Below, piece after piece: positions 4,697-49,011 of a stretch of DNA of 64,000 bases. The position numbers and the translations under genes were made by a program. Positions within the stretch are counted from its first letter, which is position 1; each line of letters starts with the position of its first letter. The notes below the pieces were generated by a model. That model did no database searches. It worked only from the letters and a program-made list of their open reading frames with translations, and was not told the origin of the DNA. This stretch comes from a virus, in IMG/VR virus record IMGVR_UViG_3300046170_000301. One strand, written 5' to 3'.

Positions 4697-4767
4697 AGCG
4701 AGTGACGGGGATCGAACCCGTGACAAGAGCTTGGAAGGCTCGCATGTTACCGCTACACCACACTCGC
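4697..4767 (-). tRNA. tRNA-Gly(TCC)
   Basis: Cloverleaf GCGAGTG...CT-TCC-AA...GGTTCGATCCC...CACTCGC. Confidence 0.95.
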
Positions 4768-4799
4768 AAGGGTGTGAGGGCGTTACTCCTCCATATAGT

Positions 4800-5054
4800 T
4801 TATCCGAAACTGATGACATCTTCAGATATGGGGGAAATATTATCTGTCATATAAAAATCGTAAAGTGTTCCTCCAGTATTAAAATCAGTTGTTGTGCTAA
4901 TTTTAATATCACCAACACTGGCAAGATTGTTACGTGAACGAACTTTGTTATATAAATCAAACAAATCAGTAATTACATCATCGTAACCAGCATCAAGAGC
5001 TTCAATAAGAACACGACGAATGAAATCTACAGAGCTTGATTGTTCTTGTGTCAT
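4800..5054 (-). CDS. Hypothetical early protein
   Basis: ORF; start moved to ATG 5054 because a consensus promoter lies at 5079-5107. Confidence 0.65.
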   Translation of the reverse strand: MTQEQSSSVDFIRRVLIEALDAGYDDVITDLFDLYNKVRSRNNLASVGDIKISTTTDFNTGGTLYDFYMTDNISPISEDVISFG

Positions 5055-5078
5055 AGTGTTTTTTGAAAGGACCTTCAA

Positions 5079-5107
5079 ATTATAGCAGTTGAAGCGTGTG
5101 CTGTCAA
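5079..5107 (-). promoter_or_regulatory. Sigma70-type early promoter
   Basis: TTGACA-N17-TATAAT with extended -10 TG. Confidence 0.85.
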
Positions 5108-5112
5108 CTAAG

Positions 5113-5184
5113 TCGGAGCATTTGGAATCGAACCAAAATCGCCAGTTCCCAAAACTGGAATGTTGACCATTATACTATGCCCCG
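5113..5184 (-). tRNA. tRNA-Pro(TGG)
   Basis: CGGGGCA...CCAGT-TTTGGGA-ACTGG...GGTTCGATTCC...TGCTCCG. Confidence 0.93.
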
Positions 5185-5294
5185 TTTCGATGTATGAACA
5201 TGATACCATAGATAGGAACCATGATCAAGAGAAATGCCAATAAACCAACGAATATTGGCATTTCCATTAAATTGGCAATTAAATTAGTAATCAT
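5175..5294 (-). CDS. Small single-pass membrane protein (39 aa)
   Basis: MITNLIANLMEMPIFVGLLAFLLIMVPIYGIMFIHRNGA; ATGA overlap with upstream stop. Confidence 0.6.
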   Translation of the reverse strand: MITNLIANLMEMPIFVGLLAFLLIMVPIYGIMFIHRNGA

Positions 5295-5542
5295 CTCACC
5301 TCAAAATCTAATCTACGAACCTTTCTTTTACGACGGTTCTCCTGAAACTCCATATCTTGTTTATTCAAGAGTTGGGGGGTCGTCTTCTGTCGGGGGTTTG
5401 ATATAATTTCCACTAAGGATAAGTTCTTGGCGCTTATGTTTGTACCACGGATGCTCGTAAGGTTGTCGCATTGGCAACTTCTCATCTGTGATGGGTGCTC
5501 CTCTAATTGCTTCCCGCAATTCTTGCATCTGATTATTAACAT
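5291..5542 (-). CDS. Small Cys-rich (putative Zn-binding) protein
   Basis: CKNC...CQC motif, AAGGA SD. Confidence 0.75.
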   Translation of the reverse strand: MLIIRCKNCGKQLEEHPSQMRSCQCDNLTSIRGTNISAKNLSLVEIISNPRQKTTPQLLNKQDMEFQENRRKRKVRRLDFEVR

Positions 5543-5642
5543 CTATAATCATCCTTTTAATATCTTCCAATTTTTCATGAATATCTTGATGATGAAACCG
5601 TAGAGGTTTCTGAATCAATTTGTTTAATTTCTTTTTCTTCAT
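5361..5642 (-). CDS. Hypothetical protein overlapping the Cys-rich gene in another frame
   Basis: MKKKKLNKLIQKPLRFHHQDIHE...; the longer track ORF extends into a tRNA-like element, so ATG 5642 is preferred. Confidence 0.5.
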   Translation of the reverse strand: MKKKKLNKLIQKPLRFHHQDIHEKLEDIKRMIIDVNNQMQELREAIRGAPITDEKLPMRQPYEHPWYKHKRQELILSGNYIKPPTEDDPPTLE

Positions 5643-5659
5643 ATTATTTATATGGATAA

Positions 5660-5733
5660 TGGGAGATACTGGATTTGAACCTAAGACTTCTTGGTTCATA
5701 GCCAAGCACTCTGTACAACTGAGTTAAGAGAGT
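5660..5733 (-). pseudogene. Chimeric pseudo-tRNA (Arg-ACG-like 5' body with ATG anticodon, unrelated Val-like 3' end)
   Basis: D and anticodon arms pair (CTTGG-CTATGAA-CCAAG); T-stem (TTAGG/CCAGT) and acceptor (ACTCTCT/ATCTCCC) do not. Confidence 0.7.
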
Positions 5734-5740
5734 ATTAATT

Positions 5741-5815
5741 TGGCGAAGGGTGAGAGATTTGAACTCCCATCGCAAGGTTTTGGAGACCTGCATCTTACCA
5801 TTAGAATAACCCAAC
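5741..5815 (-). tRNA. tRNA-Trp(CCA) with encoded CCA; two U-U mismatches in acceptor stem
   Basis: GTTGGGT...AGGT-CTCCAAA-ACCT...GGGAGTTCAAATCTCTC-ACCCTTC-GCCA. Confidence 0.8.
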
Positions 5816-5824
5816 AAAATTTAT

Positions 5825-5885
5825 AGTGGGAGTGTGGAGTCGAATCAACGAAGGTTTTACCCTCACGGTTTAGCAAAACCTTGAT
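5825..5885 (-). pseudogene. Decayed tRNA-Ser(GCT) remnant
   Basis: GGTT-TTGCTAA-ACC anticodon arm, long variable arm GAGGGT-AAA-ACCTTC, TTCGACT loop; no 5' half. Confidence 0.5.
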
Positions 5886-5942
5886 AGGAACTAGCATTAT
5901 AGAAAATTATAGGGAGTGGAATTTACTCCCTTCTAAGTATTA

Positions 5943-6581
5943 CTAGGCAGCAAAACCAACCTTTGTTTTTATAATAGTTCTATTTGACTTAAACAAGGAA
6001 ATACCCGTTGGCTTACCGTAGTTTTTAACAGTTTTAAGCCTATCTTCGTTGGAATAAAAATCTCTTCGTATTCTTTTTGATTTATCAATAATCAACTCAA
6101 TAACATCACTTATAGGGCAACTTCCTATAACAGTTGAATATAAAATAGTTTTACCTTCATCATAGAAAGCAAAAAGTTGATCCAATTGTTCCAAAAACTT
6201 TACTGTTGATTTTTGATTGTATGAGGTTCCCATATATTGATGAATTAAATTCAAATAATAATCCACACAAACAGCGTGAATACTCCTCAAGGATAGATCA
6301 AGGCTTCCATCAGATCTTGTGTAGTAATAAACTTTAGCAATACCATTTCTTCGAGTATAAAGATCTTTTGAAATAAAAGGGGACTGTTCTTCTGGAAAAG
6401 ACATCCATAGATGATCCAAGCGGGTACTAGGACATTCGTTAAGTGGCTTATCCATTTTAAATTCTTTGATGGAAACATTCATCAAACAAAGATGATGCTC
6501 ATCTTCACGCTTACGCCATTCTGATAGATGCCCCTGAAAAAGAACCTGCTTACCTTCAAATGGAACTAATTGGCTTCTCAT
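5943..6581 (-). CDS. Hypothetical protein inserted in tRNA cluster
   Basis: 212-aa ORF followed by AGGGAGT/ACTCCCT hairpin (5911-5931); no family recognised. Confidence 0.7.
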   Translation of the reverse strand: MRSQLVPFEGKQVLFQGHLSEWRKREDEHHLCLMNVSIKEFKMDKPLNECPSTRLDHLWMSFPEEQSPFISKDLYTRRNGIAKVYYYTRSDGSLDLSLRSIHAVCVDYYLNLIHQYMGTSYNQKSTVKFLEQLDQLFAFYDEGKTILYSTVIGSCPISDVIELIIDKSKRIRRDFYSNEDRLKTVKNYGKPTGISLFKSNRTIIKTKVGFAA

Positions 6582-6645
6582 AATATAGTATCAATTATTA
6601 TTAATAAGAGTAACAATTTACCCGTATGTTACTTGGAACAACCAA

Positions 6646-6717
6646 CAGGCGTACCTGGACTCGAACCAGGAATAAGGGTTTAGAAGACCCGTGTGATATC
6701 CGTTTCACCATACGCCC
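6646..6717 (-). tRNA. tRNA-Arg(TCT)
   Basis: GGGCGTA...GGGT-CTTCTAA-ACCC...CCTGGTTCGAGTCCAGG-TACGCCT. Confidence 0.95.
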
Positions 6718-6805
6718 ATAAGAGTCTTCCCTGTTTGAGCATCGTTGAGAGGCTTGGGAGAGGTAGGACTTACACTAAGTTTGGACCTCCGTTGCTAATG
6801 AAGTT

Positions 6806-8058: not shown

Positions 8059-8211
8059 ATGTATCATATTAACAAAGATGACATCATCAATTTAGTTAGA
8101 GCTTGTGAAAGGTATCAAGAGTCATCAAGTTCAGAATATATGTGGGAGAAGTATCAAAAATTAATAAAAAAATTAAATATCTATTACGAACAGAACTACG
8201 ACCAGAACTAA
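8059..8211 (+). CDS. Small hypothetical protein (50 aa), convergent with lysozyme
   Basis: MYHINKDDIINLVRACERYQESSSSEYMWEKYQKLIKKLNIYYEQNYDQN; CTAAATA late-like box upstream. Confidence 0.6.
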   Translation: MYHINKDDIINLVRACERYQESSSSEYMWEKYQKLIKKLNIYYEQNYDQN

Positions 8212-8666
8212 CTTCTCCAAAGTTTTCCTTCTGCTTTACGTCTCCTAAGTAAACCAGCTTCTACTTTACTACCAGGATTTCTATACATCTCAAGAACTTT
8301 TGGAACATCATTCCAGTTACGTTTTTTTAATGTCCTCGTAATTGTATTGAAACCAGAAGAACCATAGAAGTTAGCACCAAGATTATAAGCAAAACTTAGT
8401 AGTGCTCCACGCTGATTCATATTCATCTCATTCCAGTATGGAATCTTTGTTAGTGGTGGAAGGAACTCTTTCGTAATTTGATTAATTAGAAGAGAATCAG
8501 CAACACTCTGGGATATTTGCTGGTCAAGTGTAAATGGTTTGCCATTGTAATCTCTTATGCTACCCCATCCATTAGTAATAGGAAGACCACCAGAAAGAGG
8601 GTCTGGATATGCTTTTAGATGGCAACCTTCAAACTCTTTAATTAACTCTACTCCTTTTTCTGGCAC
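8208..8666 (-). CDS. Lysozyme/endolysin (GH24), probably translated as the C-terminal domain of a frameshift fusion
   Basis: LIKEFEG..LKAYPD...T.GWG, ALLSFAYNLG, GLLRRRKAE; GTG start lacks an SD. Confidence 0.9.
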   Translation of the reverse strand: MPEKGVELIKEFEGCHLKAYPDPLSGGLPITNGWGSIRDYNGKPFTLDQQISQSVADSLLINQITKEFLPPLTKIPYWNEMNMNQRGALLSFAYNLGANFYGSSGFNTITRTLKKRNWNDVPKVLEMYRNPGSKVEAGLLRRRKAEGKLWRS

Positions 8667-8724
8667 CTCATATTTACTAGTAGGAGTAGAGTTTGTTACT
8701 TTTTTGCTTCAAAGGTTCTCCCCC
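8644..8724 (-). promoter_or_regulatory. Putative -1 programmed ribosomal frameshift signal
   Basis: GGGGGAG, 12 nt, A_AAA_AAG (8705-8699), TAA, perfect 12-bp stem starting 5 nt downstream. Confidence 0.75.
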
Positions 8725-9394
8725 ATCCTGACGTAGGACCTTCTGGAGTCCACCTACGAGCCAGTTCTGAACGTTTGTAGATGGTACCCTTGCCGTTGTA
8801 TACCGAGCTTGTGTAGGCGTCGTTGAGGGAGCCGTAGGGGTCGTTGACGACGTAATCACCCGATAGGGTCTTTCCTATGACCACAACCATGTGCCCACCT
8901 GTAGGATTAGCAAGAGTGCCACGATGAAGTATCCCAATAACCACTGGTCTTCGCTTAGAAAGTTCACGATCAAGGTCATTAAAGCTAAGATGATAATGAA
9001 AGCTTGATTTAATTCCATAAGAATTTAACACTCTCGTCTGTACTAAATGGTTTGCAGTGTCACCAATAGAGAACACTTTTCTGATGTAAGCATCATCTCC
9101 TTTCTTACCAAGCAATGTGCCAGGTTTAAAATATTCAAGACACATAGCACAAGCAGAACTATTACAAGTTCTATTGGCATCTCTATAATTATCTGTCTGT
9201 GGATAATATGGAACGTTGAGAACAAGGTCTGCTGGTTTTGCCAACGGTGTTCTATATGTTTTAACCCAATCTGCTTCATCATAAAGAAGTTCTGGTTTCA
9301 ATACAGAAATTTCAGAAGCAAGTTTTGCTACTGCTTCTAAATGTTTCGGATTATTCTCGTCAAAATATTTGAAAAAATTCTTGAAGTCAATCAT
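8696..9394 (-). CDS. Peptidase C39-like (papain-fold) cell-wall protein
   Basis: LNVPYYPQTDN...TCNSSACAM, GGHMVVVIG, VNDPYG catalytic Q/C/H/D motifs. Confidence 0.85.
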   Translation of the reverse strand: MIDFKNFFKYFDENNPKHLEAVAKLASEISVLKPELLYDEADWVKTYRTPLAKPADLVLNVPYYPQTDNYRDANRTCNSSACAMCLEYFKPGTLLGKKGDDAYIRKVFSIGDTANHLVQTRVLNSYGIKSSFHYHLSFNDLDRELSKRRPVVIGILHRGTLANPTGGHMVVVIGKTLSGDYVVNDPYGSLNDAYTSSVYNGKGTIYKRSELARRWTPEGPTSGWGRTFEAKK

Positions 9395-9734
9395 TGTTGT
9401 CTCCGTATAGGTTTATAAAATACTCGGCATCTACTACAACTAAAGGTTTTTCACCATTCTTTTTGATGACAACTATTGGCTCGTAGTTACCTTTATTGGC
9501 AACTGCCTGTTTGTATGCTTCCCAGATATTTAGTTTTTGTGTATTTTTGCACTCGATTGAATGTGGGAAGGATTTTCTGGCAGCCCGAGCCATTATAATA
9601 TCTTCACCACCAGCTCCCATAGACCTCGATTCAATGTCTTCTGGGTGAATATTAAGATGTTCTATTAATTTATTTCTAACCCACTGCTGTAATCTTCTAC
9701 CCTTATTTTTAGCCGAGCTTGGTTTAATTGGCAT
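9387..9734 (-). CDS. PD-(D/E)XK Holliday-junction-resolvase-like nuclease
   Basis: SAKNKGRRLQQW...GEDI...SIECKN...AYKQA. Confidence 0.7.
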   Translation of the reverse strand: MPIKPSSAKNKGRRLQQWVRNKLIEHLNIHPEDIESRSMGAGGEDIIMARAARKSFPHSIECKNTQKLNIWEAYKQAVANKGNYEPIVVIKKNGEKPLVVVDAEYFINLYGDNND

Positions 9735-9762
9735 CAGTATCCTCCATTATAATCCAACCCCT

Positions 9763-10905
9763 TTAAAGTTTAAATTGTGAAAATTGATTAGATTTCATAT
9801 CTTGCTTTAGACCACCAATTACATATGTTTCTTGCTCCGTTTCTTGTGGAGCAACTTGAAGACCCTTGGAGTTCAACCAGTGCTCAGTCCAAGGAAGTGG
9901 ATTACTATTAGCAGGAACATCAAAGATTGGTTTCAATCCAATAGCTTTGAGACGACGATTGGCAATCCACTCTACATATTTACCTAATAATTTGTCATTA
10001 AGACCAATCATACTTCCATTCTTTGAAGAGGTATTTTGCCCATTGTTTCTCTTCATCAACTGTCTTCTTAAACATTCTGATTGTATTCTCTCTTTCCTTC
10101 TTCTGCGATCTGTTTCATCTCTGGATCATCGCCTTCATTCCATTTGTTCAATATCTGTTGTGTCACAACTACATGCTGGTTCTCATCCCGACTGATGAGG
10201 GATATGATTTTAGCAGATCCTTCCATGAGTTTGAGTTCACCGAATGCAAATGAGCACGCAAATGACACATAGAATCGTATTCCTTCCAGAATATTGACAT
10301 TGGCGATTGCCCTATAGAGTTTCCGTTTGAGTTCATGTCTGTCATAAGTTCCCTGTTGGATGTCCTTCCACTGCATATTTCCACAGATTACCAGAATCGT
10401 ACTCGTGAGCATCGTTCACAAAATCATCATATGATGATGTTACACTTTCTGCACGTTCTAATATTTTCTCGTCTTTTAAAATTGTATCGAATACTTCGGC
10501 TGGATCTGAGTAAACATTCTTGATGATGTATGTGTATGAACGACTATGGATCATCTCCATAAATTGCCAGACGTTCATGCACGCTTCCAACTCTGGAAGA
10601 GAACAATATGGTGCGAATGCCATACCAGGCGCCCTACCTTGAACAGAGTCTAACATGATCTGATATTTCAGATTTGAAGTAAAGATGTGCTTCTGTTCTG
10701 CTGTTAAGTTCTGATAATCAGAACGGTCTTTCTGTAGGGAAACTTCCTCTGGTCTCCAGAAATAGCCTAATTGTTGTTGAGTTAATTTCTCGAACACTGG
10801 ATATTTAGACCCATCGTATCTTTGAACTCCTAAAGGTTGTCCAAAAAACATGGGTTGTTTCTTTGTTTCTACTTCTTTTGTATTAAAAACAGTCAGACCT
10901 GACAC
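9763..10905 (-). CDS. nrdB: Ribonucleotide reductase class Ia beta subunit (three apparent single-base insertions)
   Basis: [38 protein letters not shown] motifs spread over 3 track ORFs. Confidence 0.93.
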
Positions 10906-10919
10906 GTTATTCTCCGTTG

Positions 10920-13208
10920 CTAAATTTTACAGGATTCACAATCATCTTCTTGTTCGACAGAACAATCTTCTAATAATTTATTTAAACTTTCTTTGACATC
11001 AACCTCATCAGTTTTGAGGTCATTTGTGTTTTGATAGTAGGATGTTTTCCAACCGTATTTGTATGTAGTTAAAAAATCATTTGCCATCACCGACACTGGA
11101 ACTTCATTGTCAGGGTAGTTCTCTGGATTGTAACTCCAGTTACCAGATATAGGCCTGATCAAAGAATTTTTGCATCACAGATATAATTTTAATATATCCT
11201 TCATTATCTTTCATATCCCAAAGAATTGTATAGTTATTCTTTAGATGTCCGTAGGAGGGAACAATCTGTTTAAGAGGCCCTTTCTTTGATTTTTAACGGA
11301 CAAGTAGTCTCTAGGTGGTTCAATTCCGTTTGTTGCGTTTGACACAATGGAACTGCTCTCCGAAGGCATTTGTGCGGACAGAGTGCTGTGCCTGAGTCCG
11401 TGTTCCAAGATAGATGACCTAAGACTATTCCAATCATAGTTGAGTTTGTTTGGTACGATCTCATCTACTTCAGTCTTGTAAGTATCAATCGGTAATATAC
11501 CACCAGAATATTTTGTACGATTAAAATATTCACACTTACCTTTTTCTTTTGCAAGTTGATTAGATGACTTTAACAGATAATATTGAAATGCTTCAGTAAG
11601 ATCATGAGTCAATTGCCATGCAGATGAATCACCATAGTGTTCTCCGTTCTTTGCCAAGTAGTGTGCAAGACCTATAAAACCAATACCAAGAGATCTTCTT
11701 TTTTTAGTTGAATTCTCTGCGGCCTTTACTGGATATCCCTGATAGTCAATTAACTCCTCCAGGCCCCTTACAGATAGGTCACAGAGGTCTTCTAATTCCT
11801 CTAGTCTATTAATCTTTCCAACATTAATTGCGGATAAAATACAGAGAGCGATCTCTCCATCAGGGTCATCAATGTGTGAGATTGGTTTTGTGGGTAAAGT
11901 AATTTCTTGACAAAGATTACTCATGCTCACTTTATCTATAAAAGATGAATGTGAGTTGCAATGATCAATATTCATCAGATAAAGACGACCAGTTTCTGCA
12001 CGTTCCTTAAGAATGTTTAAGATTAATTCTTGAGCATCTACTTGTGACTTAGGAACTGATTCATCTAACTCATATTGAGTGTATAGTTCATCAAAAGATT
12101 CCGTACCAAAACTATCATAAAGCCCTGGCACATCATGAGGAGAAAAAAGTGTGATCTTCTCGTTTGTAATAAACCTCTCATAAAATAATTTACTCAATTG
12201 AATACTATAGTCTAGTTTCCTTACACGATTATCTTCTGTTCCTTTATTGTTCTTGAGTACAATTATGTCTTCTATTTCTTTGTGCCAGATTGGGAAGTGG
12301 ACAGTCGCTGATCCACCTCTAATGCCGTTCTGAGTGCAACATCTGACAGTACTTTCAAACTTTTTGAGGAAAGGTACAACGCCTGTGTGCTGTACTTCTC
12401 CACCCCTGATTTTACTGTTGATGCCACGGATGCGGCCTGCGTTGATACCGATACCCGCCCTTTGTGCAACATATTTGCCGATAGCCATATCAGAACTAAA
12501 GATGCTATCGAGGGTGTCATCAGAATCAACAAGAACACAGCTAGCAAATTGTCTAAGAGGAGTTCGTACCCCGCCCATGATAGGCGTGGGGATGTTGATT
12601 CGGTGTTTCGAGATTGCTTGGTAGTATCTGGTGACATAATCGAGTCTTGTTTCTTGTGGATATTCTGCAAATATAGTCATCGCAATCACAAGATACATGA
12701 ACTGAGGAGTTTCATAAACTTGCCCAGAACTTCTATCTTGCACAAGATATTTATCAACTACTTGTCTGAAGTCCAGCATATGTAAATAGATAATCCCTGA
12801 TCATGGTCAATGAAGCATTAATTTTGCATTCTTCATCTGAATATTTACAAGATTCATATCATAAACATCTAGAATCATGATATAGCAGCAATGCATCAAA
12901 ACATGTTGGCAGTTCCTTTCCTCCAAATGTCATATACTTTTACGAATAGAGAATAAAAGTAATCTTGCTGCAACAAATTGATAGTTAGGATGGTCAAGTG
13001 AAATAAGGTCGCTTGCTGAACGAATAAGAATCTCTTGGATTTCTTCTGTTGTAATACCGTCATAAAACTGAATACCAGAATTCATTTCTACTTGAGAAGC
13101 AGAAACTCCACCAATACCTTCACATGCTTCGTCTACCATTTTGTGGATTTTGTCAAGATTTAGCGGTTCAACGGCACCGCTTCTCTTTTTTACGTTGATA
13201 CTGCTCAT
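10920..13208 (-). CDS. nrdA: Ribonucleotide reductase class Ia alpha subunit (several apparent indels, garbled 12780-12930)
   Basis: ATP-cone VKKR, QFASCVL, SNLCQEI, MPSESSS, KTSYY, C-terminal CESCKI. Confidence 0.93.
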
Positions 13209-14200
13209 ACTTTTTTCCATTCGATTAACTTTAACTTTGCTTCTAATCCTTGATAAGTATTGTATTTTACCACACTTTGAACATCGTGTCCAGATAAAAC
13301 CATGTCGTTGACATCTTTATCTGTTATAGAACTTGGCCATATCACTACTGGATAACCTTTGTCGATTGTCTTTGATATTTTATCAACGATTTCTCGGTTT
13401 CTTGGTTCGTTATCAAATACGAATGTAAATTGATAATTGAAAGTGCTAAGGTCAACATCGCTACCGCACATAGCAATACTGTTCCTAATGAACATGGAGT
13501 CAAAGGGTCCTTCGGTAACATAAATCTGTTTCTCCAAATCAACTCTATCCCAACCAAACACTTTTTGTTTGGCATCATCTAACATGACACTGATGTATCT
13601 TAGCTTTGCTTTAGGGGCAAGTGAACGTCCTTGATATCCGAACATCTTACCATCTTTATCCCTCATTGGGATTATAATACGAGGACTATCTTTCCTCAAA
13701 GTATCAAATACTTTCTTTTGAGAATTAGTCCACTCTTTAAATTTAGGACAATAGAAAAAGTAATCTAACTCTTTAATTTTTCTTGATTCTAAGTATTGTC
13801 TGGCTGGGTGAGAAGTATTTAGATTTGATATTGATTCCAAGTTTACATCTCTTTTTGTTTTAACAAAAACAGGTGGTTTGAAATTGAAATCTGGATTCTT
13901 TGTTTGTGTTCCTTTGCCAGTCAGACCTTCTTTGTATCTTTCCAACACATACTGGTCATGAAGATGTGGACAATTATCCTTCAAGAAATTGGTAAATGTC
14001 CTTCCAACTCCACAGTTATGGCATTTGAAAACAAAGTCATTTTTTATCTTAAACAGATATCCCCGAGTTTTATCTTTTCTTTTTTTACTGTCTCCACAAT
14101 ATGGACACCTGAAATTATAAAGGGAATCTTTTTTTCTTGAGAATTTTAGTAATTGAGGTGATATAAGATTGATGTATTTAACATCAATGTAACTCATCAT
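13205..14200 (-). CDS. g61: DNA primase (T4 gp61)
   Basis: CPYCGDS..CHNCG zinc finger; TOPRIM EGPFDS, FDNEPRN, KDVND. Confidence 0.95.
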   Translation of the reverse strand: MMSYIDVKYINLISPQLLKFSRKKDSLYNFRCPYCGDSKKRKDKTRGYLFKIKNDFVFKCHNCGVGRTFTNFLKDNCPHLHDQYVLERYKEGLTGKGTQTKNPDFNFKPPVFVKTKRDVNLESISNLNTSHPARQYLESRKIKELDYFFYCPKFKEWTNSQKKVFDTLRKDSPRIIIPMRDKDGKMFGYQGRSLAPKAKLRYISVMLDDAKQKVFGWDRVDLEKQIYVTEGPFDSMFIRNSIAMCGSDVDLSTFNYQFTFVFDNEPRNREIVDKISKTIDKGYPVVIWPSSITDKDVNDMVLSGHDVQSVVKYNTYQGLEAKLKLIEWKKV

Positions 14201-14607
14201 CTAGTCTGTTCAATACGTTCCTCTATGGTAACACCCCTGTCGCCTACTGTCAATAGGTCTCCGAAGAACTGTGCTGAACCGATGATGAAGATGGCCGCCG
14301 AGGCAATGCCAATGGTCATCCAGCGAAAGTTATAAAACTCTCCCATCTTTTCTTCAAGAGATTTAATCTTTTCTTTTATATCTTTAATATATTCAAGAAG
14401 ACCTTCATCTGATTTATTACATTGGTCTATTCTTTCTTCATGTTTAGCAAGAATAGCAGCAATATTATTGTTGGTTTCACTGATTTTATTTACAGCATTA
14501 TCCAACTTATCCAACATCTCCCTTGAAAGTTCTTCGTATATCTCAACTCTTTGAGCAAGAAGTTCAAAAGATTTATCCATTTCAGATTTTACTGCTTTAC
14601 CAAACAT
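14197..14607 (-). CDS. Coiled-coil protein with C-terminal TM helix
   Basis: Heptad pattern then WMTIGIASAAIFIIG; contains an internal TTGACA-N17-TACCAT promoter ahead of primase. Confidence 0.7.
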   Translation of the reverse strand: MFGKAVKSEMDKSFELLAQRVEIYEELSREMLDKLDNAVNKISETNNNIAAILAKHEERIDQCNKSDEGLLEYIKDIKEKIKSLEEKMGEFYNFRWMTIGIASAAIFIIGSAQFFGDLLTVGDRGVTIEERIEQTR

Positions 14608-14626
14608 TTATTTTCCTCGTAAGTTC

Positions 14627-15346
14627 TCAAACATTACGAACTGAAAAATCAAGAACTTGCTGGAAAGTAGCAGCATCCTTGTTTAACATATAACGGAACC
14701 TATCTTTATTATCATCATTCAATTGAGAATAAGCAGCAGCAATTCTTTTTGCTGAAAAGTTGTCGAGGTTCTGTTGTGTTCCATCACCAAAAGTAATCTT
14801 AGCAAAGTTTGCTTCTCCTCTTGGGTCAAGTTCAGATGTAGCAACTTGTAGTGCTACTTCAAGAGCATCAACTCCAGTGTTTTCGTTAATCATGTCACCC
14901 TCCATTTCGTAAGAATTTTTTAGTGATGCTTTTTTCTGTTGTTCGGATGCTTTCTTTTTAAAATCAGCAAGACGAGCTTTCATTAAAGTATCCATCTCTT
15001 TAGTCTTGTCCTGCATTTTTGCTTTAGCTTCATCTCTTTTTTTCTGAAGCTCTTTAGACCTCTTGAGCTTTTTTTGTTGCCCAATAGATTTTTGTGCTCT
15101 CTCGGTTTCTGAAGGAGCAGCTTCTAGAATTTGTTTGTCTAGTTCTTCTTTCATTTTTTTACGTCTGGAAATACGAGAGAGTAGATTTTTTGCCCCCTTT
15201 GTTCTGCCGTCAATATAATCTTTATTATTTTTTTTATATTTACGACGCTGTTTTGTATTAACAAATACAAATGCTGGTGGAAGTGCAAGTCCACTTCCAT
15301 CACCTGCTATCATTTCTTTTAAATTAGATTCAGTTTCTTTAGACAT
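14627..15346 (-). CDS. Hypothetical charged protein
   Basis: 239-aa ORF within the operon. Confidence 0.7.
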   Translation of the reverse strand: MSKETESNLKEMIAGDGSGLALPPAFVFVNTKQRRKYKKNNKDYIDGRTKGAKNLLSRISRRKKMKEELDKQILEAAPSETERAQKSIGQQKKLKRSKELQKKRDEAKAKMQDKTKEMDTLMKARLADFKKKASEQQKKASLKNSYEMEGDMINENTGVDALEVALQVATSELDPRGEANFAKITFGDGTQQNLDNFSAKRIAAAYSQLNDDNKDRFRYMLNKDAATFQQVLDFSVRNV

Positions 15347-15675
15347 TCTTCATCAATTTGGTTGTTTAAAGCCGAGGGCAATCTATCGAGAAATAATAAA
15401 AATGCTTTCAAAACTGGCCAATAGTTAGACTCTATTTTGAAAAATAAAAGAGGTGTGGTAGCTTCATCAAATACATTATATAATAATATAATATGATTCA
15501 AAATAAGATTCACCTTCAATTCACCTTGGGTTTCATAACGACGAAATAATCTTTTAATGTATTTAAAAGTATTTAGGTCTTCTTGAAAGTCATCATATGT
15601 TACGCAAGTAGGGTTATCATAATTTTTCATAGCGAAAAGAACCCAATTGTCCTTGTTCAATTCATCAAAATTCAT
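15319..15675 (-). CDS. Conserved T4-like hypothetical protein
   Basis: FAMKNYDNP.C...F.EDL..FKYIKRL...LILNHII motif typical of T4-like phages. Confidence 0.75.
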   Translation of the reverse strand: MNFDELNKDNWVLFAMKNYDNPTCVTYDDFQEDLNTFKYIKRLFRRYETQGELKVNLILNHIILLYNVFDEATTPLLFFKIESNYWPVLKAFLLFLDRLPSALNNQIDEECLKKLNLI

Positions 15676-15681
15676 TGATTA

Positions 15682-16272
15682 TCAAGCAACGGTCACAGTC
15701 AATATTGCTACATCAGAAATAACTTCTGGAGCACCAGCAGTTGAGGTAAGTTTGACACGATACTTTCTACCGTCATCATCAGTAGTTAATCCAGTAAGAG
15801 ATAGGGAAGCAGTTGTTTCTCCAGAAATAGTTTTCCAACGAGTTCCTGTTGCTTTCTGTGATTGCCACTGATAAACAATATCTCCAAGGTCAGGGTCATC
15901 AGCAGCAGTTACAGAGAATGTAACGGCTCCAACAGCATCATCCGTTGCTTGGTCTGTAGGTTGAACAGTAATATTAATTACAGAGGTTGCATCTGCTGCT
16001 ATAGCATCATCATCTTGAGTTTCCTGAGCATTAGGCTCTGGGTCTGCAATGATTATTAGATGCTCTGCTTTATGTCTGGTATGTCCTTCACAATCTGTAT
16101 AAGTGTAATAAGACCACCATCCAGGAGCATTAAGACCACGCTCTTTATTCTCTTCAAGAGCTGCTTCTGTATTGTCAATAAAGACAATTGTTTTTGATTG
16201 AGATGATTCAACTACACCACGTCCAGCTTTAGTTACGTTAGTGTTTGAGTCATCTTTCCCGTATAGAGACAT
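15682..16272 (-). CDS. Virion protein with C-terminal Ig-like domain
   Basis: ITVQP..VTFSVTA..YQWQ..LSLTGL..DDG.KYRV; TATAAATA at 16308-16315. Confidence 0.75.
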   Translation of the reverse strand: MSLYGKDDSNTNVTKAGRGVVESSQSKTIVFIDNTEAALEENKERGLNAPGWWSYYTYTDCEGHTRHKAEHLIIIADPEPNAQETQDDDAIAADATSVINITVQPTDQATDDAVGAVTFSVTAADDPDLGDIVYQWQSQKATGTRWKTISGETTASLSLTGLTTDDDGRKYRVKLTSTAGAPEVISDVAILTVTVA

Positions 16273-16342
16273 TCAACCTCTCCAAAAATTTACTTTTTAC
16301 CTACAAATATTTATAAAAATAGGGGAGTTTCCTCCCCGTAAA

Positions 16343-16510
16343 TTATCTCTTCTTTTTTACTTTACTTACTAATGCTCTCAAAAAACTTCTAACGACTTGA
16401 AAAACACCCTTTTCTTTCAACCATGGAATGTAAGACAATGCTTCGGATATTGCCCATAAAGCAGCAAATACAATTGCGGCTCCATGAGAAATCAAAAAGC
16501 ACTCAATCAT
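16343..16510 (-). CDS. Small holin-like membrane protein (55 aa)
   Basis: MIECFLISHGAAIVFAALWAISEALSYIPWLKEKGVFQVVRSFLRALVSKVKKKR; TM segment plus basic tail; hairpin downstream. Confidence 0.55.
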   Translation of the reverse strand: MIECFLISHGAAIVFAALWAISEALSYIPWLKEKGVFQVVRSFLRALVSKVKKKR

Positions 16511-16686
16511 TTCTCAGAGCAGTTTTTGAGAAGAGCAACTCTTACGCTAGTTGAAATGAGGTCATCGATATCATTATCGGTTGTCTGAACATAGCGGTCA
16601 AGAAGGTCAACTACGAGAAGCTTGGTGTTGCAAGAGTTGAGGAATTTAAAAAGAATTGGTCTAAAAAGTTGTACTAAATTGTCCAT
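16507..16686 (-). CDS. Small hypothetical protein (59 aa)
   Basis: MDNLVQLFRPILF...TDNDIDD...; AAGGAG SD; ATGA coupling. Confidence 0.7.
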   Translation of the reverse strand: MDNLVQLFRPILFKFLNSCNTKLLVVDLLDRYVQTTDNDIDDLISTSVRVALLKNCSEK

Positions 16687-16834
16687 AATTTATTCTCCTT
16701 AAGGTAAGTTGGTCGTGGGTTTCCCTAATCTATTTATGTAAATTGGGGTCTTTCAACTGAGGAGACATTGTTTTAGATTGTCCCTTCATTGCTTTCTTAA
16801 GATACTTTCTTGTTTTCTTTTTATTTTCCATATC

Positions 16835-16917
16835 GTCAGGACCACCGTCTTCTAATTTAGGCATCACCTCAACGGTAGGTTCTGACTTCTTTACTTTTTT
16901 TCCTCTTCAATCTCCTT
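16835..16917 (-). promoter_or_regulatory. Putative -1 programmed ribosomal frameshift signal
   Basis: AAGGAG, 11 nt, A_AAA_AAG (16900-16894), TAA, 13-bp interrupted stem starting 7 nt downstream. Confidence 0.7.
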
Positions 16918-17772
16918 ACGAAGTTCTGCTTCCTCTTTCATTTTTTTCTTCTTAGAAATAATCTTGGAAACTTTCTTACGACGATTTAGAAGATACTTAT
17001 CGGACTTATCGTGGTCACCATCATTGTCAATATCCTTATCTTCTTTCCCTACTGGGTCAAGTGCTTCATTGGTCTTTTTCTTTTCTGGAAGACCTTTATG
17101 CTTAGTAGAAGCAAACTTCTCTGCTTCCTTTCCAGTCATTGACTTAGCAGCTTTATCAACTTCTTTAGAACCACCTCTCATTTCGCCTTTCTTTTTAGCG
17201 TGAACCATTCCCATGAAGCGTTGTTGTGCTTTACTTACTGACTTCTCTTGAAGTTCTTCGCCATCATGCTCGACTTCATCACCAGCTTTCACACAGTTAT
17301 CAACTCTCTTACCACCTTTTATCTTGGTTCCCATTTGCTTGTATCCTTTCCAACAAGCTTTACCATCTAAACCTTTCTTCTTGTCTGCTTCAAATACATA
17401 AGTGAAACCATCAAGTTCAAACTCGTAGGTTTCTTTCTTCATATCCTTATCTTTCTTCTCACAGCGGGAGCACCCCTTCCCGCCGCAGTAAGAGCAGGTA
17501 TCACACGACTCCTTCGTAACCAGTTTCGTGGTGTCCTTAATCTCTGCTCCGTGTGATTGTTTAATACCAGAACCAGTCCGTAAATCAACAGCAGGGTCAG
17601 GAGATGAAGCGTTTGCTTTTGGGTCTTTTTTGGAAGTGTCATCTTGCTTCTTTTTAGACTTGTCTAGCGTAGGAATACCCTCTTCGCCTAAACGTTTTAC
17701 AGTTCCTTCAATGAGTGCTTTTGAGAACTCGTCATTATAATGAACAGAGTTTACTGGTTTCTGTTTTTCCAT
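16891..17772 (-). CDS. Lys/Glu-rich modular protein, putative internal head protein; -1 frame extends it to 16730
   Basis: Modules [38 protein letters not shown] separated by Glu-ending linkers. Confidence 0.75.
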
Positions 17773-42130: not shown

Positions 42131-42775
42131 TTAAAGATTTGAGAGAAATGACTTAAACACTTCTAACTTTCTTTCTTCCAATGCTATTTTTGTGGAGTTA
42201 TCAATATATCTTTTTGCGTATTCAATATGACACTCTTTCAAAATACCATTTTCCCAAACCCACTCTTTACCTTCCATAATGCCATTTACAAAGGCATCTG
42301 GAGCAGAAGGGTCAGCGACAATATCTGCCGCTGTGGAAAGCATGAAGTCATCTCTAACATACTTAGCACCTTCACGCTCTTCAAGTGAACCCATTCCTCT
42401 GGAAGAAACTCCAAGTTGAACACCTTCTTCTAAAAGTGACTTGGCAATTTTCCCCATCGGAGTATCAAGAACTCTTGCTTTACCCATGAAATTATTTCCA
42501 TCGGCGTAAAGTTCTGTGATTTTATGTGACACTCTATCGAGATTTACGGAAGGTCCATCTGGGTGGCCGAGTTCACCAAGAGCACGACCACTCTTTACAT
42601 ATTGCTCTACGTATCTTTCTACTTCACGGTTTAAAACACCGAATGGATAGATTCTTCCATTTCTGTTTTTTGTTTCCGATTGTAAAAAGATACCTTCGAT
42701 ATAGAGATTCTTCTTACCTCCTTTTTCTTCTACAAGAACTTTAACGTTCTCGATATTTTCTGTGATTAATTTCAT
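42131..42775 (-). CDS. g21: Prohead protease (gp21)
   Basis: NRNGRIY, GELGHP, GVSSRGMGS, DPSAPDA. Confidence 0.96.
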   Translation of the reverse strand: MKLITENIENVKVLVEEKGGKKNLYIEGIFLQSETKNRNGRIYPFGVLNREVERYVEQYVKSGRALGELGHPDGPSVNLDRVSHKITELYADGNNFMGKARVLDTPMGKIAKSLLEEGVQLGVSSRGMGSLEEREGAKYVRDDFMLSTAADIVADPSAPDAFVNGIMEGKEWVWENGILKECHIEYAKRYIDNSTKIALEERKLEVFKSFLSNL

Positions 42776-42957
42776 TCTTCTGATTGTTGACTTACTGGTT
42801 CGTCAAAAAAAGTAGAAGCAACTACTTTTTTATAATCATCTAATGTTTTTGCTGCTTGTGAATAAAGCATATCATCAATGATATCAATCGCTTCCGCTCT
42901 TTTTTTGTCGTAAAGCAAGTTAACAACATCTAGAGCTTCGGGTTCTTTTTTATCCAT
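42772..42957 (-). CDS. Small prohead core protein (gp67/68 position)
   Basis: 61 aa between g20 and g21. Confidence 0.6.
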   Translation of the reverse strand: MDKKEPEALDVVNLLYDKKRAEAIDIIDDMLYSQAAKTLDDYKKVVASTFFDEPVSQQSEE

Positions 42958-47364: not shown

Positions 47365-49011
47365 TTAATAGTTCCACATGTATGAAACATCTTCTTGGGT
47401 ATCGCCATACCAGACAGTTCCATCAGTAACTATACCTTCATCTCCTTCTAGTCCAGTTACAATAAATCCAAACGGAGACATGTCCTGTTCTATTTGATTT
47501 TTTTGTTCTTCGTAAATTCTTTTACGAACGTCGTTATCTGTCATTTCTTTAAAGTAATCTTGGGTTGCCAACCACGCAAAAATTACCAGACACATAACTA
47601 AGTCGTCATGAAATCCCTCGTCAGCTTCAAACGATTGTTTCTTTTGAATAAAAGTTGTTAGTTCGTTGATAATATCGTAATCTCGGAAAAGTAGTTTGTC
47701 GTCTTCGACCATTTGCTTAAGATTAGCACATCCTTGTTTCTTAACAGTGACGCTCATCTTAACGCCTAACTGAGTTTTATTTCCAGAAAATCCTTGCCCC
47801 ACAAGTTGACCAGCACGACCTCTCATCGAGCACATTAAAACATTTGGATACTCTAAGTCATATTGTAAAATTGACGCTACTTGGTCGCCAACATCATTTA
47901 CTTCACAAAGGACATAAGCATGATTATATGCTCTTGCCACATCATTAATTATGTTAGGAAAGAGCATAGGTTTTATTTCATTGTTACGAAACTTAGCAAC
48001 TATCTGATAGGGGACAGTTGTAATATCGAATACAATAAAAGCAGAATAATCACCACCGATTCCTCTACTAACATCAGCAGTGATGATATACTCTTTATTA
48101 GATTTTGGTTCTTCGTAAACATTAAATCCTTTATTAGTTCTGATAGGAGTATCAAAAACTAATGAGCGAAGTTTTGAAGCAGCAATCAGCGTATCAACAG
48201 AACCCAAGAACTCACATTCAAATTCCTGAGTGAACTGACGCTCGGACGTGTTCTTAATTGTTTCTTCTTTCCACTTCTCATCACGCCCAGGAACTTCAGA
48301 CCAATGGACTTCAGTCCACACATAGTTGTTTCTTTTGTTTTGAGCATCAACCCACAACTTATAGAAGTGGTTCATACCATACGGGGTTGAAATGATAATA
48401 ACTTTTGTTTTTTGTCCAGAAGAAATTGTAGGATATACTGAACTGAAAAAGTCATCAGCGATATGATTTGGAACGAAAGCAAACTCGTCCAAGAAGATGA
48501 TGTTAAATGACATACCACGAACAGCAGATGCTGATGTGGACGCTGCCATAATCTTAGAACCATTTTCCAGTTCCATAGAACCTTTGTTCCAAGCAATCAC
48601 ACCTTGCTGTAACCACTTAGGAAGATTCTCGTATGCTGTCTGTAATCTTCCTAATAGGTCACGGGCAGTAGATGCTTTGTTAGCAAGAATACCAATGTTT
48701 GAATTGTCATTGAACAAAGCATAATGAAGAAGATAGGAAACAACAACAGTTGACTTTCCCGTCTGCCTCGGCAGTTTAGCAATATTAAATCTATTGTTGT
48801 GAAATTTTTCTACTAATTCTTTTTGGAACTTATACATCCTAAAAGGAATCAGACCTTCATCAACAGAAACAATTTTTACATAATTTAAAGCAAAATATAC
48901 AGGGTCTTCCTTACACTTTACATATTCTTCAATCTGCTTTTTTGTCCACTGATGTTGGACGTTTGCTTTCTTAAGTAACGGATTACCTAAGTATATCTGG
49001 TCACTTGCCAT
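47365..49011 (-). CDS. g17: Terminase large subunit (gp17)
   Basis: PRQTGKST, LDEFAF, ISTP, HDDLVM. Confidence 0.97.
   Translation of the reverse strand: MASDQIYLGNPLLKKANVQHQWTKKQIEEYVKCKEDPVYFALNYVKIVSVDEGLIPFRMYKFQKELVEKFHNNRFNIAKLPRQTGKSTVVVSYLLHYALFNDNSNIGILANKASTARDLLGRLQTAYENLPKWLQQGVIAWNKGSMELENGSKIMAASTSASAVRGMSFNIIFLDEFAFVPNHIADDFFSSVYPTISSGQKTKVIIISTPYGMNHFYKLWVDAQNKRNNYVWTEVHWSEVPGRDEKWKEETIKNTSERQFTQEFECEFLGSVDTLIAASKLRSLVFDTPIRTNKGFNVYEEPKSNKEYIITADVSRGIGGDYSAFIVFDITTVPYQIVAKFRNNEIKPMLFPNIINDVARAYNHAYVLCEVNDVGDQVASILQYDLEYPNVLMCSMRGRAGQLVGQGFSGNKTQLGVKMSVTVKKQGCANLKQMVEDDKLLFRDYDIINELTTFIQKKQSFEADEGFHDDLVMCLVIFAWLATQDYFKEMTDNDVRKRIYEEQKNQIEQDMSPFGFIVTGLEGDEGIVTDGTVWYGDTQEDVSYMWNY

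Follow-up and report, generated by a model that had tools for sequence, protein, structure and literature searches.

Two unrelated genes on the minus strand of IMG/VR virus record IMGVR_UViG_3300046170_000301, a T4-like cyanophage, probably end in dnaX-type programmed -1 frameshift cassettes in the "reverse" layout. The record was analyzed over a stretch of 64,000 nucleotides, hereafter the window, and all positions refer to this stretch unless another genome or locus is named. In both genes, the slippery heptamer A_AAA_AAG is read in its shifty frame at the terminus of the open reading frame (ORF), a TAA stop comes next, and the -1 frame is open. Comparison with related genomes makes frameshifting very likely at site 1, where a C39-like cysteine peptidase would be extended by a GH24 lysozyme, and likely at site 2, where a Lys/Glu-rich modular protein would gain a short C-terminal module. 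An earlier note on this DNA had described one recoding architecture in the two genes, and the description holds in that the flanking elements are present at both sites and the signals are conserved and of the recoding type.

Architecture of the two sites

The window contains exactly two copies of the sequence AAAAAAGTAA, and both are on the minus strand (8705-8696 and 16900-16891). Shuffling produced two or more matches in 28 of 100 shuffles, so the bare motif count is at chance level and was left out as evidence. In-frame A_AAA_AAG was found five times in the 69 gene-like ORFs of the window and is terminal only at sites 1 and 2, which also mark the only ORFs of this set that end in Lys-Lys-stop.

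Site 1 closes a 232-residue ORF (8696-9394, minus strand) that matches the Pfam peptidase family Peptidase_C39_2 (PF13529, E = 9e-12, 46.2 bits, cut-off 24) and would encode the short product. The heptamer occupies 8699-8705 and the 0-frame stop TAA abuts it at 8696-8698. A Shine-Dalgarno (SD)-like GGGGGAG (8718-8724) lies 12 nt 5' of the heptamer, with an anti-SD duplex of -8.4 kcal/mol. A hairpin (8644-8693) with a perfect 12-bp stem (8693-8682 paired to 8655-8644) begins 5 nt 3' of the heptamer and has a ΔG of -17.4 and a z-score of -3.86. The -1 frame (8208-8699, minus strand) is open for 163 codons to position 8208. It consists of a 21-codon linker followed by a GH24 phage lysozyme (PF00959, E = 9e-20, 71.7 bits, cut-off 22.3), and the predicted long product has about 395 residues. 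The peptidase aligns to positions 3-235 of the 405-position profile phrog_3617 and the lysozyme to positions 243-405; since one profile spans both halves, a two-domain protein is the norm in this family.

Site 2 closes a 293-residue ORF (16891-17772, minus strand) that would encode a Lys/Glu-rich short product. This ORF aligns with phrog_4359 from end to end (positions 1-262 of 262, E = 4e-78), and its protein carries a CWKGY...NCVK module, a DUF3008 domain (PF11450, E = 7.5e-7), and a DxDxDG loop. The SD-like AAGGAG (16912-16917) lies 11 nt 5' of the heptamer (16894-16900), the stop TAA abuts the heptamer at 16891-16893, and an imperfect stem-loop (16835-16886, ΔG -21.6, z -4.5) begins 7 nt 3' of it. 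The -1 frame (16730-16894, minus strand) is open for 54 codons to a TAG at 16732-16730 and would give a long product of about 347 residues. The -1 peptide matches phrog_11250 (E = 6e-12) in an alignment that begins at residue 3, which is 5' of any start codon, and it carries a module of the form (V/I)E(V/I)MP...KKYLK.

Ribosomes that do not slip would end at the stop directly after A_AAA_AAG and release the short protein. If tRNA-Lys slips back by one base, so that AAA-AAG is re-read as AAA-AAA, translation would continue in the -1 frame and yield a C-terminally extended protein. At site 1, the products would be the 232-residue C39-like peptidase and a peptidase-GH24 lysozyme fusion of about 395 residues, a wall hydrolase in two forms in which the peptidase alone and the peptidase-muramidase fusion stand at a fixed ratio. 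At site 2, they would be the 293-residue modular protein and a form of about 347 residues that ends in the (V/I)E(V/I)MP...KKYLK module. The site 1 product could be an endolysin or a virion-associated wall hydrolase, and the 293-residue protein of site 2, which is both basic and acidic, is probably packaged in the head.

Conservation of both sites in independent genomes

Phage S-PM2 is about 71% identical to the window at the DNA level in this region. At site 1, it has the identical gcaAAAAAGTAA; its gcaAAAAAGTAAc ends p156, and the lysozyme, which follows in the -1 frame, lacks any ATG, GTG, or TTG ahead of the catalytic EFEG. At site 2, gaaAAAAAGTAAagaag ends p145 of S-PM2, and Sf-CH11 and S-CAM1 have AAAAAAGTGA. 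Two proteins from other metagenomes (P0126 and P0005) that are 96-97% identical to the window ORFs end in the same residues. The same signals are therefore conserved at the same two genes in independent genomes, and for this reason the sites are not artefacts.

The earlier note had also expected standard annotation to miss the sites, and S-PM2 illustrates the point. In its record (NC_006820, 116229-116717; locus L001, 2252-2740), only a 73-residue "putative lysin" is annotated, from an internal ATG. The N-terminal GH24 half, with the catalytic Glu, falls in the gap after p156 and has no annotation. None of the annotated records examined, S-PM2 among them, joins the ORFs at either site.

Peptidase-lysozyme junctions at site 1

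Relatives of the site 1 peptidase in 80 IMG/VR loci gave 46 distinct heptamer junctions. All have A_AAA_AAG with a stop codon (TAG, TAA, or TGA) at once or one codon on and the lysozyme in the -1 frame. Most of these junctions lack an ATG, GTG, or TTG from the slip site up to the catalytic Glu of EFEG, and where a TTG is present it usually stands three codons before that Glu.

The downstream hairpin accompanies the heptamer. It starts 2-8 nt 3' of the heptamer in the relatives, with a mean z-score of -4.5 and a z-score below -2 in 42 of 46. At least five unrelated stem sequences occur at this position; the 3' arm is formed by conserved G-V-(E/D)-L codons and the 5' arm by the variable linker. 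The stems occupy three registers, one codon apart, and RNAalifold returned no consensus structure on mixed site 1 alignments. Single-family alignment, per-sequence folds, and arm-swap controls were therefore used. Native arms pair with a mean of -18.1 kcal/mol compared to -10.6 when arms are swapped between sequences. The largest family has a 14-bp helix that is 97.9% paired and shows compensatory changes in five pairs, a result matched by none of 500 shuffles; slid registers of this single-family alignment pair at only 27-48%.

The family also contains proteins in which the two frames have been joined. The in-frame fusions P0141 (12 contigs) and P0131 read GWGRIF-ESPTNN...; a 14-nt deletion has taken out precisely the D-x-K-K-V slip segment, and no long-range hairpin is left (z -1.7). 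The heptamer and stem are thus dispensable once the frames are genetically fused, as expected if their purpose is frameshifting. Some other relatives have the peptidase only, and S-CREM1 has a reversed lysozyme-peptidase fusion.

Some metagenomic relatives (L010, 2182-2265; P0134, P0136, and P0159) carry an extra A. The resulting A7 run puts peptidase and lysozyme into one frame, with the TAG and the hairpin retained. These forms may be a true polymorphism, a homopolymer error, or a population mixture.

Junctions with the (V/I)E(V/I)MP module at site 2

Four scans were pooled to give 74 distinct junctions with the (V/I)E(V/I)MP module, and they fall into two types. The heptamer is present in 45 junctions (type B), including those of the window and S-PM2. 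Codons -3 to -1 read GAA AAA AAG in all 45, whereas AAA-AAG accounts for only 65 of the 540 Lys-Lys pairs found elsewhere in these ORFs. The stop, TGA or TAA in the relatives, follows at once in 35 junctions and one codon on in 10. Of the best 120 site 2 homologue clusters, 118 end in KK, KKQ, or KKN.

The remaining 29 junctions (type A) have a plain ATGA overlap and no heptamer. The Lys codons before their stop vary (penultimate AAG in 16, AAA in 10). Their downstream ORF has an additional N-terminus of 24-26 residues, which starts MK(T/S)FKQ(F/L)REE in 26 of 29. Scored as MK.[FY]..[FLIM], the MKxFKxF leader is found in 26 of the 29 ORFs with their own ATG compared to none of the 45 heptamer-type modules. 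Lacking a leader, a heptamer-type module could enter the head only when joined to the end of the upstream protein, which we offer as a lead. The ATGA-overlapping small ORFs of type A loci such as L111, L113, and L190 begin with this leader, and many neighboring small ORFs in distant loci share a similar start. In S-CAM1 (L007, 2091-2180), a 15-codon in-frame insertion (NEACGCDDKPAKKGG) separates the slip site from VEIMP and preserves part of the ECGC motif that the stand-alone versions have in their leaders.

An upstream GGAG lies 7-11 nt 5' of the site 2 heptamer in 35 of 37 distinct contexts. The codon before GAG ends in G and its amino acid varies (K, Q, M, A, or R), and the median anti-SD duplex is -8.2 compared to -2.4 for background. 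Per-sequence folds start 6-7 nt downstream in most lineages, with a mean z-score of -2.7 and 19 of 26 sequences below -2. The first start codon in S-RIM32, L102, and L105 is the Met codon of VEVMP. In the clade of S-PM2, S-RIM32 (L101), and L099, most differences from relatives in the codons between slip site and module nevertheless fall on third positions of the -1 reading frame. L102 and L105 match their TGA relatives exactly over this stretch and so add no third-position evidence. The module also occurs in frame within a P0003-like protein at four loci (L136, L146, L210, and L215). These fused forms came from a scan of loci, and a protein search for longer proteins containing the module found none.

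Weighing frameshifting against other explanations

Both sites place the heptamer in frame within a translated ORF, and their -1 frames code for a conserved polypeptide that is not otherwise expressible, less strictly so at site 2 because of the ATG in VEVMP. Site 1 adds a downstream structure that covaries. Several observations weigh against frameshifting and are collected here and with the alternatives below. The evidence is wholly comparative, and both the slippage and its efficiency are what we infer from it. The SD-like element is not conserved at site 1, where a core SD tetramer is present in 7 of 44 contexts and the third base of the codons TGG GGN AGA is variable. RNAalifold found no common structure at site 2, and the S-PM2 clade folds weakly there. 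The earlier note had attributed an SD and a stem to both sites. Its SD is conserved at site 2 but not at site 1, and its site 2 stem lacks an alignable consensus, though most relatives fold. A deletion in the closest site 2 relative (L088, 2304-2393; 89%) leaves a -1 extension of only 27 codons. It may be that the contig is defective or that the distal part of the extension is not needed.

Site 2 might instead make a separate small protein by termination-reinitiation at a GTG or TTG that overlaps the stop or at the ATG of VEVMP, with the A-rich heptamer serving as mere Glu-Lys-Lys coding and start context. We judge this unlikely but regard it as a serious alternative. A GTG, TTG, or ATG overlaps the stop in 29 of the 45 heptamer-type junctions, a classic termination-reinitiation layout, and every site 2 junction has the ATG in VEVMP. 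The 29 further relatives with a plain ATGA show that the module can stand alone, PHROGs lists it as a 54-residue family of its own, and there is no fused form among the best 120 homologue clusters. However, no start codon overlaps the stop in the other 16 junctions, among them those of the window and S-PM2, where GTA replaces GTG, and the two interchange between near-identical relatives (L105/L106 and L102/L108). A GTG start would account for the final G only and not for the invariant GAA AAA, and the relatives with ATGA coupling vary their Lys codons freely. Homology and the third-position substitutions begin at the slip site, upstream of any start, and in-frame fusions are known. The GGAG is 13-17 nt from the GTG, too distant for a ribosome-binding site and correctly placed for a -1 stimulator (in part PMC5009743). 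Frameshifting at site 2 is the reading that these data favor.

At site 1, the GTG at 8666 or a non-canonical start could serve to translate the lysozyme alone, so that the locus makes two separate enzymes. The window does have this in-frame GTG 11 codons past the slip, and some records annotate two separate endolysin genes. ATGA-overlapping starts stand alongside the heptamer in S-SRM01 and in L061/L068, which shows that independent initiation occurs in the family. As an account of site 1 it is nevertheless very unlikely. No start precedes the catalytic Glu in S-PM2 or in most of the 46 junctions, and a covarying hairpin at the spacing of a programmed ribosomal frameshift would be left without a role. 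The hairpin has been lost in L061 (z -1.2), which has its own ATG, and fusions in frame exist without the heptamer. These data are better explained by frameshifting at site 1.

Transcriptional slippage is a highly improbable alternative for the two sites. RNA polymerase would add an A within the A6 or A7 run so that some mRNAs encode the fusion. One added A does give the exact fused frame, as in the A+1 assemblies described above for site 1, and the run at site 2 is already A7. The runs are only 6-7 A long, and bacterial transcriptional slippage sites usually have at least nine. A polymerase would have no use for the fixed AAG end, the SD-like element, or the hairpin at 5-8 nt, which are stimulators that act on the ribosome.

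Homopolymer sequencing or assembly errors, or recent inactivating mutations, have a negligible chance of explaining the sites and were rejected: although the window holds frameshift-split genes such as nrdB (three ORFs at 10905..9763), the heptamer carries the same frame break in S-CAM1, Sf-CH11, S-RIM32, the Sanger-sequenced S-PM2, and dozens of independent IMG/VR metagenome contigs, with flanks diverged by 30-60%, which bears out the earlier view that the sites are not artefacts.

Distribution of the signal in the phage genome

The earlier note had suggested that Lys-Lys-stop frameshifting might be phage-wide, and the test of this idea covered the 64-kb window and the whole 196-kb S-PM2 genome. 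All ORF ends in the window were scanned for X_XXY_YYZ heptamers followed by a long -1 frame, and only sites 1 and 2 were real cases; the remaining matches are alternative-frame ORFs inside larger genes. The motif is ORF-terminal at the same two genes only in the whole S-PM2 genome. A general Lys-Lys-stop system was rejected on these counts. Since only two genes carry the signal, its recurrence is the parallel use of one standard cassette by two gene families.

Internal in-frame A_AAA_AAG without an adjacent stop is found at 48937-48943 and 15068-15074 (minus strand), in ORFs of 548 and 239 residues, respectively. An inverted pair, AAAAAAGTAG...CTACTTTTTT, is located at 42806-42831 inside a 61-residue ORF (42772-42957, minus strand); the AAAAAAGTAG pair is read there as AAA AAA GTA and is not in the shifty frame.

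tRNA-Lys context

A_AAA_AAG shifts more readily than any other heptamer if AAG is decoded by a single tRNA-Lys. It is far more shift-prone in Escherichia coli than related heptamers, and about half of bacteria read both AAA and AAG with a single tRNA-Lys (PMC5009743). A 2.5-Mb single-contig cyanobacterial genome (G058), which may not be the host of the phage, has 40 tRNA genes with tRNA-Lys(UUU) as the sole Lys isoacceptor. It was chosen from the best matches to an S-PM2 tRNA-Lys query in a 201-genome sample, and those matches are tRNA-Thr genes. Three small genomes (G072, G120, and G140) have tRNA-Lys(UUU) too, and S-PM2 encodes tRNA-Lys(UUU) and no CUU species. A sole tRNA-Lys(UUU), as seen in G058, would fit efficient slippage.

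Both the window (4697-6718) and S-PM2 (about 118.65 kb; L304, 1909-1983) carry a cluster of tRNA genes immediately downstream of the lysin locus. The S-PM2 cluster includes tRNA-Lys(UUU); in the window, the tRNAs detected by ARAGORN are those for Gly, Pro, Trp, and Arg only.

The same tRNA-Lys(UUU), supplied by the host or, as in S-PM2, encoded by the phage, would slip at the same heptamer in both genes. It is conceivable, and in our view rather improbable, that the two cassettes form a coupled pair whose short-to-long ratios shift together with the supply or modification of tRNA-Lys(UUU). If true, the pair would be a translational sensor that links host physiology to lysis and virion content.

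Genomic neighborhood

This region of the window is devoted to replication and nucleotide metabolism, with nrdA/B, primase-like, and clamp-loader genes and hsp20. The late-promoter motif TATAAATA was not found directly upstream of either the site 1 or the site 2 gene, so the label "late genes" given to them earlier is not confirmed. The genes for the modular, Lys/Glu-rich site 2 proteins adjoin a "head protein" gene. The window nrdB (9763-10905, minus strand) is divided into three ORFs of 187, 114, and 98 residues, and the S-PM2 nrdB is one gene of 394 residues. None of the breaks falls at a long homopolymer, and they may reflect either faulty assembly or a gene in decay.

Significance and novelty

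T4-like cyanophages rank with the most abundant ocean viruses, and how they lyse their hosts is poorly understood. If frameshifting occurs as proposed, the only GH24 lysozyme of many such phages would be made solely as a trans-frame fusion to a peptidase, the ratio of the lysozyme fusion would be set by RNA signals, and a second, unrelated gene would use the same frameshift. Annotation pipelines should then merge these ORFs. Each locus exists in three interchangeable architectures, namely in-frame fusion, ATGA coupling, and heptamer plus stop, and these provide a natural experiment on the origin and decay of frameshift sites. No paper in the literature searched describes frameshifting for a cyanophage lysin or for the gene at site 2. 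The mechanism is textbook, so the system is of interest for its new gene classes, how widely it is conserved, and its testability.

Comparison with known systems

The closest parallel is E. coli dnaX, in which A_AAA_AAG gives two products, tau and gamma, with a common N-terminus. The cassettes share with dnaX an SD-like element about 10 nt upstream (at site 2 and at site 1 of the window), a stem-loop 5-7 nt downstream, and a heptamer that here would be read by a single tRNA-Lys(UUU), as in G058, which may not be the host. In some dnaX genes, the 0-frame stop directly follows the shift site and the long product arises from the shift (PMC5009743). Both cassettes share this "reversed" arrangement, with the long product predicted to be the shifted one. 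Unlike dnaX, the genes encode a phage peptidoglycan hydrolase and a modular protein, the host is cyanobacterial, and the SD is not conserved at site 1.

The IS3 family insertion sequences (IS911 and IS150) also have A_AAA_AAG near the end of the upstream ORF, and their orfA-orfB fusion is made by slippage only. They use a downstream structure and an upstream SD, the structure in IS911 being a three-way junction. The IS911 structure is mentioned in PMC5009743. The phage genes differ in that they are not transposases and their 0-frame stop abuts the heptamer.

The gpG/gpGT system of the tail assembly chaperone in tailed phages is likewise a conserved -1 frameshift that yields a short and a C-terminally extended protein at a fixed ratio, and it too is recognized by synteny and an open -1 frame (PMC5009743). 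The genes and function differ from those considered here, and the lambda heptamer is G_GGA_AAG. To our knowledge, T4-like phages do not use the gpG/gpGT system. The two-product lysis loci in phages of Gram-positive and mycobacterial hosts resemble site 1 in making two polypeptides with a common domain. They differ in using an internal start or an uncharacterised overlap, and none has the cassette of heptamer, stop, and hairpin.

The capsid-targeting sequence of T4 is MKTYQEFIAE. The MK(T/S)FKQ(F/L)REE leader on 26 of the 29 site 2 modules with their own ATG resembles that of T4 internal proteins, a resemblance of motif only. The small, modular, Lys/Glu-rich genes adjoining a "head protein" gene would be a further likeness to the T4 internal proteins.

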